Shown piece by piece: positions 3,049 through 25,634 of a stretch of 34,513 nucleotides of DNA (positions are counted from its first letter, which is position 1; the number at the start of each line of letters is the position of its first letter). Both the position numbers and the translations under genes were made by a program. The notes under the pieces were generated by a model. That model was not told the origin of the DNA and ran no database searches. It was given only the letters and a program-made list of their open reading frames with translations. The stretch lies in the IMG/VR virus record IMGVR_UViG_3300005512_000154, positions 1-34,513 of that record. One strand, 5' to 3'. This stretch comes from a virus. Lineage: Duplodnaviria; Caudoviricetes.

Positions 3049-3839
3049 CCCACCCGACAGACAACCTGGTGCGAGCCTTCCACGCCCCCGAAGCGGCGCT
3101 GCTGCGAGTGGACGGCGACGGCGGCGCGGACGGCAACACGCTGTTCGGCCACTTCGCCGTGTTCAACGAGTGGACTGAGATCAACTCGTCGTTTGAGGGC
3201 CGCTTCCTCGAGCGCATCGCCCCCGGCGCCTTCGAGGACAGCTTCACCAGTCGCAGTGACTCGGTGCGGGTGCTGTACGACCACGGGCATGACCCGATGA
3301 TCGGCAACAAGCCGCTCGGCAACCCGCGGGTGATGGCCGAGGACGAACGGGGCGCCTACTACGAGGTCGACCTGTTCGATACCAACTATGTCAGCGAACT
3401 GCGGCCCGCCCTGGAGGCTGGCCAGCTTGGTGCGTCGTTCCGGTTCCGGGTGTCCGCCGAGCGGTGGCGCTCACCCGACAAGGCAACCGCCGACAACCCC
3501 GACAAGCTCGAGGAACGCACCATTACCGGCGTTGAGCTGTACGAGTTCGGACCGGTGACATTCCCGGCCTACTCGGCGGCCACGGCCGGTCTGCGGTCTC
3601 GCACCGACGAGTTCCACGAAATGCTTCTCGACCCCACCTTCGCCGTCCGGTTCGCCGAACGGGTCGGCCCCAAGGTGGTCGAGCACCTGATCGCCAAGCT
3701 GCCGGACGGCGTCCGCAGCGACAGCACACCGACAGAACAGCCCGCCGGCGGCGGCTCGGAAGTCGAAACCCCCAAACAGACGAAGGCGGCACGCCCCGTG
3801 GCGGCTGCCATTACTGATCTTCGAAAGAGGAAGCAATGA
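3045..3839 (+). CDS. HK97-family prohead maturation protease
   Basis: GGAGG RBS, ATGA overlap with portal; FAVFN, ERIAPGAF, LYDH, ASFRF and LYEFGPVTFPAY motifs. Confidence 0.93.
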   Translation: MTHPTDNLVRAFHAPEAALLRVDGDGGADGNTLFGHFAVFNEWTEINSSFEGRFLERIAPGAFEDSFTSRSDSVRVLYDHGHDPMIGNKPLGNPRVMAEDERGAYYEVDLFDTNYVSELRPALEAGQLGASFRFRVSAERWRSPDKATADNPDKLEERTITGVELYEFGPVTFPAYSAATAGLRSRTDEFHEMLLDPTFAVRFAERVGPKVVEHLIAKLPDGVRSDSTPTEQPAGGGSEVETPKQTKAARPVAAAITDLRKRKQ

Positions 3840-5281
3840 AGTACCTGAACGTTCTGCGGGAACAGCTCGCAGCACTGACCGAACAGCGTTCCGCCGCCAT
3901 CGCCGAGATGGAGGCCGTGACCGACGCAGCCGTGGCCGAGGAGCGTTCCGCCCTCACCGCTGAGGAAGATGCGGCGTTCATCGAGGCCCGCGAGAAGGTC
4001 GACAGCCTGGATGCGGAGATTGAAGCCGTGATCCAGCGTGTCGGCGAGCTCGAGGGGCTTGAGGCCCGTCGTGCCGTGGCCGCCACCAAGCCGGTGGAGA
4101 CCTTCCACCACCAGCACCGCACCCCTGACGCCGATTCCGTCGACGTGGCCCGCATGTCTCCCCAAGAGGCCCGCGACGCCGCACTGGCGACCATCGAACG
4201 CAAGGACGAGGTCGGGCTCCGTTCCGATCAGCTCGACCATGTCGAGCGTCTCGTGCGTGCCAACCGTGCGGACTGCCGTGGTGACCTGATCTCGAAGCGG
4301 CTGCTTCTCACCGAGAACGAGGCGTACCGCTCCGCATGGCAGAAGGCCGTCACCCAGCCGGTGCCGTCCTTCACCCCGGACGAGGCCCGCGCCCTCGAAG
4401 AGTTCCGTGCCGCCAGCATCGGCACCGACACCTCGGGCGGATTCGGTGTGCCGGTTCTGATCGACCCGTCAATCATTTTGACCGGTCAGATGTCCGCGAA
4501 CCCGTTCCGGTCGATTTCGAACGTGATCTCGATCACGAACGACGAGTGGAAGGGCGTCAGCTCTGCTGGCGTGTCGTGGAGCTTCGACACTGAGGCTGCG
4601 GAGGTCAGCGATGACACCGCAACCCTGGCGCAGCCCACCATCCCGGCCCACATGGCCCGTGGGTTCATCCCCTACAGCATCGAGGTCGGAGCCGATTACC
4701 CCGGCTTCGCCACCGAGATGTCCCGCCTGCTGGCGGAAGGTGCAGACGAGTTGGAGGCGGAGATGTTCGCCACCGGCACCGGCACCAACCAGCCGACGGG
4801 AATCATCACGGCACTCGACGCCAACACCAACGCAGAGGTTTCGGTCACCACGGCCGGCACCCTCGGTGTTGTCGACATCCGCGCACTGTGGTCGGCGCTG
4901 CCCGCCAGGGCTCGCGGCAACGCCACATGGGTGATGTCCGAGGACATCAACGACGACATCTCGGCGTTCGGGTCCACCTACGGTGCGGACAGCACCGTAG
5001 ACCTGACCGCAGAGGTCGAGGCGCTCAAGTCCCGCCCCGTGGTCATCTCGTCGTACTTCCCCGACAGCACCACCGCAACGACCGCTGCCAACTGGCTGGC
5101 CGTCGGTGACTTCCGGAAGTTCTACATCGTGGACCGCGTCGGCATGAGCGTCGAACTTGTCCCGCACCTGTTCGGACTGACCGCAAACAGGCCCACCGGC
5201 CAGCGCGGTTGGTTCGCCTACAAGCGGGTCGGCTCGGACTCCGTGGACGACACGGCGTTCAGGCTGCTCACCAACACCTGA
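3836..5281 (+). CDS. HK97-fold major capsid protein with N-terminal delta (scaffold) domain
   Basis: Coiled-coil N-terminus, GGFGVP, GTGTNQPTGI, GDFRKFYIVDRVG and GQRGWFAYKRVGS motifs. Confidence 0.96.
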   Translation: MKYLNVLREQLAALTEQRSAAIAEMEAVTDAAVAEERSALTAEEDAAFIEAREKVDSLDAEIEAVIQRVGELEGLEARRAVAATKPVETFHHQHRTPDADSVDVARMSPQEARDAALATIERKDEVGLRSDQLDHVERLVRANRADCRGDLISKRLLLTENEAYRSAWQKAVTQPVPSFTPDEARALEEFRAASIGTDTSGGFGVPVLIDPSIILTGQMSANPFRSISNVISITNDEWKGVSSAGVSWSFDTEAAEVSDDTATLAQPTIPAHMARGFIPYSIEVGADYPGFATEMSRLLAEGADELEAEMFATGTGTNQPTGIITALDANTNAEVSVTTAGTLGVVDIRALWSALPARARGNATWVMSEDINDDISAFGSTYGADSTVDLTAEVEALKSRPVVISSYFPDSTTATTAANWLAVGDFRKFYIVDRVGMSVELVPHLFGLTANRPTGQRGWFAYKRVGSDSVDDTAFRLLTNT

Positions 5282-23867: not shown

Positions 23868-24623
23868 TCAGGCCGCGTCGAACTGACTGCGGACGTACAA
23901 AGTAGTGGTCGCCAGGTTCGAGTGGCGCAGCAGTCGCATCGTGTCCACCGCCGAGGCGCCGCCGGCCATCAGCCGGGTGCCGAACGTGCGGCGCAGGGAG
24001 TGGCAGCCGTGGCCGTGGATGCCGGCGTGGCGCATGGCCGTCTTGACCCGCATGGCGAGGGCGTCCGGTGACCACGGGGCCAGCCGTCCCGATTCGGGCA
24101 TCAGTGCCGCAACCGAGCCAGCGACGGGCACCCGGTCTACGGCGCCACCCTTGCCGTGGACGACCATCCAACCGGCTGACACATCCTCGGCGCGTGCCCG
24201 TGACACCTCGGCGCGTCGCAGGCCCATGTCAAGCATCAGCAGCACGGGCAGCTCCAGCTCCACGCCTGCGACCTGGGAGCGCAGCCGCTGCTCCTCGTCG
24301 ATGGTGAGCACCTTCGGGACGTGGCGCGGCACGCTGGGCCGTCGCACCTGCTCGAGCACGTTCGTGGCCTCGTAGCCCATCGCCCGGCACCAGGACAGGA
24401 ACCCGCCGACGGCGACGTGATAGGAGCGCCGGGTTGCGGGTGACAGCCCCTCGGTGCAGGCCCACCACCCCAGCACGTCGCGTGGCGTGATGTCCTGCGG
24501 CGCCCGGTCGCCGACCGACTCCACGAATAGCCCCAGGATGCAGCGCCGCTGCTTGGCCGACGTGGGAGCATAGCTGCGCGCCGTGATCCAGAGTTCCACC
24601 AGTTCCGTGATCGTTCCCGCCAT
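23868..24623 (-). CDS. int: Tyrosine integrase lacking an arm-binding N-terminal domain, with C-terminal AA tag
   Basis: GLRRAEV (R), GKGG (K), HSLRR (HxxR), LRHSNLATTTLY (H, Y); about 251 aa from ATG 24623; ends QFDAA. Confidence 0.92.
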   Translation of the reverse strand: MAGTITELVELWITARSYAPTSAKQRRCILGLFVESVGDRAPQDITPRDVLGWWACTEGLSPATRRSYHVAVGGFLSWCRAMGYEATNVLEQVRRPSVPRHVPKVLTIDEEQRLRSQVAGVELELPVLLMLDMGLRRAEVSRARAEDVSAGWMVVHGKGGAVDRVPVAGSVAALMPESGRLAPWSPDALAMRVKTAMRHAGIHGHGCHSLRRTFGTRLMAGGASAVDTMRLLRHSNLATTTLYVRSQFDAA

Positions 24624-24642
24624 GCGGTTGAGGGTAAGAACG

Positions 24643-24924
24643 TCACGCGGCGGGAACATTGGGAAAACCTCCCAACATCGGTAACCCAACGGTAACCGAG
24701 TCGTCCAGCCCCTCGATAAACCAGACGAGCGGGAAGCCTGTAGCGGTCGCCCAGTGGATCACCTGGCTCACGGTCGGCTCGGTTTCGCCCTTCTCCCACG
24801 AGGACACGGTGCGGCGCGTCGCGCCCACCTTCTTGCCCATCGCAGTCTGTGACATGCCCCGGAACCGGCGGGATTGAGACAGCCTGCCCCCGAGGGTCTG
24901 GTCGGCGGTGAGGATCAACTCCAT
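24643..24924 (-). CDS. Immunity repressor, XRE/CI-type HTH, with C-terminal AA tag
   Basis: RLSQSRRFRGMSQTAMGKKVGATRRTVSSWEKGETEP HTH_3 pattern; AAGGGGGG RBS; ends NVPAA; upstream of int and divergent from the early operon. Confidence 0.88.
   Translation of the reverse strand: MELILTADQTLGGRLSQSRRFRGMSQTAMGKKVGATRRTVSSWEKGETEPTVSQVIHWATATGFPLVWFIEGLDDSVTVGLPMLGGFPNVPAA
24678..24699. other. Candidate attP core inside the repressor 3' end
   Basis: TCGGTAAC-CCAACG-GTAACCGA: 8-bp inverted arms (7/8 match) around a 6-bp asymmetric spacer, which is tyrosine-recombinase core geometry. Confidence 0.55.
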
Positions 24925-24942
24925 GCGATCCAGTGTCCCCCC

Positions 24943-25030
24943 TTGCAACACATGATGCAAGGCGAGGGACGCAACCTGAGAAAAAAACCTTGCATCAAAG
25001 GTTGCAATCCGAATGCACCTCATGTTGAAT
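24943..25030. promoter_or_regulatory. Three 18-bp palindromic operators in the divergent rep/cro region
   Basis: TTGCAACACATGATGCAA (24943-24960), TTGCATCAAAGGTTGCAA (24990-25007), ATGCACCTCATGTTGAAT (25013-25030); AT-rich island in a GC-rich genome. Confidence 0.75.
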
Positions 25031-25041
25031 GAGCGTGCGAT

Positions 25042-25215
25042 ATGGGAAACGAACTGACCACAGTACCGAGCATCGCTGCCCGACTTGGCCTCGACCGCTC
25101 CACAGTCCATCGCCGGATTACGGCCGCCGGCATCGAGCCGAAGCTAGTCGCCGGGCGCACGCGCCTGTTTGACAGGAGCGATGTCGAGGCGCTGTTCACG
25201 GAGGACGACCAGTGA
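25042..25215 (+). CDS. Cro/excisionase-like winged-HTH protein (57 aa)
   Basis: MGNELTTVPSIAARLGLDRSTVHRRITAAGIEPKLVAGRTRLFDRSDVEALFTEDDQ; GTGA overlap with the next gene; below the ORF-track length cutoff. Confidence 0.82.
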   Translation: MGNELTTVPSIAARLGLDRSTVHRRITAAGIEPKLVAGRTRLFDRSDVEALFTEDDQ

Positions 25216-25634
25216 GCCTGCGCCCCTTCTGGTTCATGTACGGCCTTCTCCTCGGGATGCTGCTGTTCATCGCCCTGAGCTGCACACCGAACGAGGTCGC
25301 AGCGTTCGGCACACTGTCACCGGCCGACCAGCAGCGGGTGCTTGATGCGCTCGCCGCCGAACAGCGGCCAACGGACTGCTACGGGGCGCTGCACCACTTC
25401 CCCGGTGACAGGGCGACGGCACGCCGGATCATCCACCGCGAGAGCCGCAACCAGCCGGCCGCCGCGAACCCTTCCTCGAGCGCCAGGGGCTGCTGGCAGC
25501 TCATCCACTCGCTGCACTCCTGGCGCTACAGCGCCGTCGGATGTTCGCCCTCCCAGTGGGCCGACCCGGTGTGCTCGACCAAAGCCGCTGCCCACCTGTA
25601 CCGACAGGCGGGCTGGACACCTTGGGGGTACTGA
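25212..25634 (+). CDS. Secreted or lipoprotein lysozyme-like (SLT/Rpf-like) transglycosylase
   Basis: Signal helix ending IALSC; IIHRES (catalytic Glu), ANPSSSARGCWQ and AAHLYRQAGWTPW motifs; GGAGG RBS. Confidence 0.8.
   Translation: MSLRPFWFMYGLLLGMLLFIALSCTPNEVAAFGTLSPADQQRVLDALAAEQRPTDCYGALHHFPGDRATARRIIHRESRNQPAAANPSSSARGCWQLIHSLHSWRYSAVGCSPSQWADPVCSTKAAAHLYRQAGWTPWGY

Follow-up and report, generated by a model that had tools for sequence, protein, structure and literature searches.

An actinobacterial phage carries a cro–rep–int immunity switch with a predicted attP resembling a putative operator of host acyl-CoA genes

The cro–rep–int cassette of the phage record analyzed here is an integration-dependent immunity switch, a known type; it exemplifies that switch, with good support, in an integrase lineage that is new and has a core of its own. 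Its attP likely lies inside the rep gene, at an imperfect palindrome that resembles a motif, GTTACC-N4-GGTAAC, of actinobacterial genomes. What may be new is the operator identity of the att cores: the one found here, like those published for non-tRNA sites of Mycobacterium abscessus prophages, is a putative operator of a host lipid regulon.

The window, that is, the whole 34.5-kb stretch of DNA that was analyzed, is a linear virus record, and its genes for portal, capsid, tail tube, RuvC, and WhiB identify it as an actinobacterial tailed phage. The cassette occupies approximately 2 kb with rep and int in the same direction and cro divergent, contains neither xis nor cII, and its mid-genome position fits the non-integrated form. 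The following features were assigned:

23868..24623, minus strand: arm-less tyrosine integrase (Int), 251 aa, ending in FDAA (Pfam, PDB matches)
24643..24924, minus strand: immunity repressor (Rep), Xre/HTH_3, 93 aa, virion form ending in VPAA (Pfam, sequence)
24643..24684, minus strand: Rep residues 81–93 and stop codon (LPMLGGFPNVPAA), a tail with an ssrA-like AA end, predicted to be lost upon integration
24659..24675, no strand: second inverted repeat (6-5-6) within the rep tail (read directly)
24678..24699, minus strand: predicted core of attP, an inverted repeat containing a single mismatch (sequence, relatives, published precedent)
24925..25041, no strand: rep–cro control region, 117 bp, with TTGCA/TGCAA inverted repeats (sequence)
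25042..25215, plus strand: Cro-like HTH_17 gene, 57 aa, divergent from rep (ORF and domain match)

The anatomy on which the original prediction had been built was confirmed in all points. The repressor ends in ...GGFPNVPAA and the integrase in ...SQFDAA, as had been read, and the rep stop codon is separated from the int ATG by 19 bp, leaving no intergenic room for an attP. The integrase, described as having no arm-binding domain, gave a sole Pfam match (PF00589 at residues 113–248), and its PDB matches span residues 5–245; since these alignments begin at residue 5, there is no space for such a domain. The best PDB match was 5VFZ Gp33 (E 3.5e-16), the length of which equals that of Brujita Int (318 aa). 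The open int frame has two more possible starts upstream, an ATG at 24659 and a TTG at 24689 within the palindrome; such a TTG or GTG in the palindrome center opens the frame in the window, L147, and L171, while the frame is closed in L148 and L155. In the control region, a perfect 7-8-7 repeat (24941–24962) and a 7-4-7 repeat (24990–25007) of the TTGCA/TGCAA type can be regarded as candidate Rep/Cro operators, and the 6-5-6 repeat in the rep tail may serve Int as an accessory site or belong to an int promoter. TTGCA/TGCAA repeat clusters were seen in the rep–cro control regions of both the window (24925–25041) and prophiGD57-1 (L236, 290–400). The early lytic operon begins, directly after cro, with a gene for an SLT transglycosylase whose N-terminus is hydrophobic (25212–25634).

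The inverted repeat at 24678–24699 reads TCGGTAAC-CCAACG-GTAACCGA with a single mismatch at 24683, and its symmetric form, as had been pointed out, yields GGG TAA behind Gly80, with the loss of 13 residues. Since the 34.5-kb window contains 28 inverted repeats of the 8-6-8 type in which no more than one base is mismatched, the bare palindrome is no more than could be expected by chance, and outside support is needed. However, its 16-bp core (24681–24696) differs at one base from the host motif GTTACC-N4-GGTAAC, the window has no other site within two mismatches of this motif, and a site with at most one mismatch appeared in 1 of 40 shuffles. The match to a conserved motif therefore raises the palindrome above chance. 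The attP is likely located at the palindrome within rep, with a predicted 6-bp overlap at 24686–24691; the Brujita integrase is said to leave a 6-base overlap. As had been claimed, no tRNA sequence is visible: the window contains no tRNA or tmRNA gene, there is no Rfam tRNA match in 24450–25100, and neither a tRNA 3′-end of the BPs/Brujita style nor any tRNA-like or other att candidate besides the palindrome was found in the window. A long core common to the window and five Acidimicrobiia genomes was likewise not found.

Relatives of the integrase clade were collected by pattern scans, which gave clade integrases in 4/4 and 4/6 viral loci (two contigs being common to both sets) and in 10 of 44 metagenome loci, one of which was the window's own DNA and two of which duplicated other loci; locus L002 came from a separate search. 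Twelve non-self loci were available for the upstream core, and after two with less than 200 bp of upstream DNA had been left out, a GTTACC-N4-GGTAAC core with one to three mismatches was found 190–320 bp 5′ of Int in 10/10 relatives. For eight of the ten this match was reached by at most 1 in 200 shuffles, for L148 by 3.5% and for L002 by 7% of them. The presence of the core upstream of Int across the clade supports its role as attP. In addition, every rep-bearing locus (the window, L147/L149, L148, L155, L161, L171, and L002) carries the site in the same frame, xxx ACC NNN NGG Tnn, and in all seven rep-embedded copies the palindrome is broken exactly at TAA, where TTA, TCA, or TAT is found instead. 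As the repressors of L148 and L002 are dissimilar to that of the window, this frame was not merely inherited together with one rep gene. Att words in the same frame also occur in homologs available only as proteins, namely P0279 (VTVGY...RRPVAA), P0269 (VTRGS...IAAA), and P0057 (FTAGL), and in P0271, the most identical of the rep homologs (60%), the shared GLDDS is directly followed by GSNPRPMDY, an attP word of the tRNA type, which suggests that att modules are swapped at this spot of the rep tail. An AA end was present in 12 of the 16 rep homologs listed, and in only two of the seven site-bearing repressors (window and L002); many integrases of the clade have no AA end.

In four relatives (L146, L159, L167, and L169) the site is present and the DNA upstream lacks a rep; in these, conserved non-coding blocks flank the palindrome on both sides, 200–500 bp 5′ of int, and possibly represent a structured RNA or another type of switch. 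In L002, a complete 23.7-kb virus record, two sites occur at 3690–3900 with a small gene between them: the imperfect copy is in the rep tail, ahead of PVAA, while the other, a perfect 6-4-6 palindrome, stands 111 bp 5′ of int. In P0057 (397 aa) an Xre repressor is fused in frame to an integrase of the clade and FTAGL occupies the att position, so that integration would cut one polypeptide into a repressor and an integrase part; the fusion could also be an assembly or frameshift artefact. A MAG belonging to the same family as an Acidimicrobiia genome, L229 (G461), contains a cro–rep(LPLAA)–int cassette that has a homologous repressor but a different att-like tail; the SGW...ELPLAA tail is common to several reps. 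Distant MAG integrases were set aside because they had no motif within two mismatches near the int start. Single-protein locus searches of viral contigs gave no match, and an overly loose pattern applied to genome contigs found clade integrases in 0 of 120 loci.

In Acidimicrobiia, 66 sites of the symmetric motif were found in 41 of 151 genomes, compared with 12 sites of the reversed control, with up to five copies per genome and varied centers. Among 30 fetched sites, 23 were within about 90 bp of the start of an acyl-CoA metabolism or TetR gene; the nearby starts belonged to acyl-CoA dehydrogenases (15), FasR-like TetR regulators (4, the assignment being below the family cut-off), ccr (2), and hbd (2), and further sites in one family had the same gene context in 6/6 cases. 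The predicted attB was found as an exact sequence ahead of acyl-CoA dehydrogenase genes in three genomes (G097, G1079, and G1209), where the spacer matches carry no weight. In Actinomycetes the motif occurred in 23 of 101 genomes (28 sites vs. 3 controls, a tally counting two sites of the unpublished genome G1223, which was excluded from the context analysis), preceding acyl-CoA dehydrogenases, thiolases, and ccr among others, while it was present in 3 of 51 genomes from the class of a Solirubrobacterales MAG. Acidimicrobiia had first been favored as the host, the motif being found in 1 of 5 other actinobacteria, and this assignment was weakened by the 23 Actinomycetes genomes. In L203 and L204, from two Acidimicrobiia genomes, the motif also stands 5′ of an Rpf-like (resuscitation-promoting factor) gene.

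The motif is thus enriched, intergenic, multi-copy, variable in its spacer, and placed before functionally linked genes as well as the putative regulator's own gene; judged from these properties it is a probable regulon operator of the TetR-family type. Readings of it as a tRNA D-loop, a dif site, or a LexA box were dropped, as its host contexts are acyl-CoA genes. For the same reason the original comparison of the palindrome to loxP or dif proved wrong, since a motif with many copies and a variable spacer 5′ of acyl-CoA metabolism genes is operator-like, unlike a single dif-type site. The operator of BkaR, GTTA(N)T(N4)A(N)TAAC, as given in PMC3920632, is similarly a TetR-type 16-bp palindrome of GTTA-N8-TAAC geometry before acyl-CoA genes, although it differs from the host motif in the inner bases.

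A comparable picture emerged in mycobacteria, where the extended Mab core, CTTACT-N4-AGTAAG, is present in 60 of 61 Mycobacterium genomes in 1–4 copies each, with 0 control sites. It sits between fadA2 and fabG4 and also before dehydrogenases, in some cases the ortholog (62–72% identity) of an Acidimicrobiia gene carrying the other motif. The fadA2 and fabG4 genes at this motif are presumably FdmR targets, and the FdmR regulon is reportedly of the TetR type. The cores of attB-13 and attB-14 (PMC8092301, Table S1) are among the genus-wide matches of the mycobacterial motif. The literature search, confined largely to papers that need no subscription, returned no report of the motif or of an att–operator link; neither did a term search of PMC10654092, and passages of PMC13520905, PMC10501769, PMC4482099, and PMC7382501 contain no motif matching these cores.

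Starting from the observed anatomy, conservation, frame, and host motif, we infer recombination, degradation, the identity of attB, and the regulator as follows, and consider this course of events probable. In the virion state the tagged Rep and Int would be unstable and be degraded via their AA tags (ClpXP-type). Once sufficient Int survived, crossover would occur in the 6-bp center of the palindrome with an attB of matching center, which would be one of the host GTTACC-N4-GGTAAC sites, that is, a probable TetR-family operator before acyl-CoA genes. At attL the right arm of the host site would convert GGG TTA into GGG TAA, leaving a stable 80-aa repressor, by which immunity would be established. 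If the orientation is that of L205, the one host site checked, the host dehydrogenase would lie downstream of the truncated rep at attL, as at attB-13, and int would be placed under a host promoter at attR, an arrangement that has been published for attB-12 as well as attB-13.

The proposal of an attP at the palindrome with an in-frame TAA supplied by the host gained support from the frame kept in relatives and from an exact published precedent, but no junction was found. Searches with the Int profile over overlapping genome sets (401 from a class, 401 from a family, 401 from an order, and a further 33 from a family, with only six candidates per genome scored in the large runs) and with the rep profile over 301 genomes revealed neither attL nor attR. 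The screening of actinobacterial genomes and MAGs suggested by the original prediction yielded the symmetric sites and no prophages split at the palindrome. Int or Rep was found near the host motif in 0 of 88 loci, a rep ending at the perfect site in 0 of 54 viral contigs carrying that site, and a shortened Rep in none of 22 homologs or their listed cluster members. The reads of sequencing run X1 (0.09 share) do not cover the palindrome and are neutral on integration.

It is unlikely, though it deserves weighing, that the palindrome is simply a captured host operator driving an int promoter within rep, with attP located elsewhere or with no integration at this site. The site lies 57 bp 5′ of the int ATG and near-perfect copies precede int in the rep-less relatives, both of which would suit a promoter element. 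Three near-identical phages (L307, L324, and L352) have the perfect motif at 1201–1216, between a divergent gene and a separate, perfect tRNA T-arm attP that lies 90 bp from the motif and ahead of a different integrase; in these phages the motif is therefore not attP and is probably regulatory, showing that it can have a purely regulatory role in phages. Perfect copies in apparently intergenic viral control regions (L311, L315, L320, L331, and L338), in L315 accompanied by additional partial copies in tandem, point the same way, and phages may capture the host operator and so tie gene expression to host lipid status. Against a solely regulatory palindrome, a perfect operator would fit into two other rep frames without a stop codon, whereas 7/7 copies take the frame broken at TAA; the window offers no tRNA-like or other att candidate, and the same geometry constitutes the mapped attP in MabC, MabN, and MabO. 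Moreover, the operator and attP roles of the palindrome can coexist.

We regard it as less likely still that attP is here while its likeness to the host motif is incidental, the half-sites of this Int family reading TTAC/GTTAC and the attB lying at a different, imperfect site such as one in a tRNA. The CTTACAAG sequence in the attP of the tRNA-using phages Jojo24 and Eyre, as well as GTTACC words downstream in Jojo24 and Rem711, would agree with this, and no junction reveals the actual attB; on the other hand, the published attB-13 and attB-14 cores themselves match a genus-wide mycobacterial motif, five Acidimicrobiia genomes share no long core with the window, and the TAA-forming frame requires a host right arm of GGTAA. 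That the palindrome is a loxP/dif-like resolution site of a plasmid-like prophage or a chance repeat, with the AA ends unrelated, appears improbable: the abundance of such repeats in the window (28) and the symmetric copies in rep-less relatives could be so explained, but shuffled sequences come nowhere near the conservation, frame, and motif match observed, and a resolution site has no need of a fixed frame within rep.

Provided that integration at a host operator is correct, a further and rather doubtful step would be that two distant integrase lineages independently chose a fatty-acyl-CoA-sensing TetR operator for their attB. Since the switch makes its decision by integrating, a host repressor bound to attB would gate lysogeny, and with int under the host promoter at attR excision would respond as well. 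The phage would then read the lipid status of its host because a single 16-bp site is contested by a transcription factor and an integrase. So far, proteases were considered the route by which these switches sense the host; should attB be an operator that is occupied and responds to a ligand, the choice between lysis and lysogeny would have a second, direct input from host metabolism. Such a use of operators would explain the three different non-tRNA sites with one core in the MabC, MabN, and MabO prophages, and it predicts that more attB sites could be found from regulon maps.

The arrangement that the original prediction had put forward as a new variant, a non-tRNA attB with a stop codon supplied by the host, is already in print. 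According to PMC8092301 (Dedrick 2021), M. abscessus prophages show integration-dependent immunity at four non-tRNA sites, and in MabC, MabN, and MabO the first bacterial base at attL completes the stop codon, CTT ACT CAC GAG TAT of the virion becoming CTT ACT CAC GAG TAA in the prophage (Fig S1); a stop codon from bacterial DNA is described as a general feature of such switches in PMC9934374. The underlying circuit was reported by Broussard and Hatfull 2013 (PMC3694055), and PMC6109161 extends the switch type to Bifidobacterium and terms the integrases armless.

With BPs, Brujita, and Charlie (PMC3694055) the window shares leftward int–rep, rightward cro, tagged Rep and Int, an arm-less Int, and, likely and by prediction, an attP in rep; however, the attP sites of BPs and Brujita are tRNA 3′-ends (GFEP/GESNP words), whereas the window has none. 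The closest named integrases (29–33% identity), those of the Gordonia phages Jojo24 and Eyre and of mycobacteriophage Rem711, stand in the same cassette as that of the window but, unlike there, with tRNA-type attP in the rep tails. The rep frame of phiT45-1 is the same as in the window. A close parallel in mechanism is that of MabC, MabN, and MabO (attB-12, -13, and -14), where attP lies within rep, with a TAC-N6-GTAA core in the same frame and a host-completed TAA at attL, and the attB sites are non-tRNA, at gene 5′-ends or intergenic. The window shows this TAC-N6-GTA core with the right arm reading GTT (one mismatch), and its extended core is GTTACC-N4-GGTAAC instead of CTTACT-N4-AGTAAG; Rep and Int carry AA tags in the window and not in MabC/N/O, the attP of which is known from mapped junctions, while that of the window is predicted from sequence. 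The window's switch would work like that of MabC/N/O, yet its integrase is outside their clade: it shows 21–23% identity to the MabC and phiT45-1 integrases, is closer to the tRNA-using Gordonia and Mycobacterium integrases (29–33%), and in the integrase tree its clade stands apart from the MabC/phiT45-1 clade.
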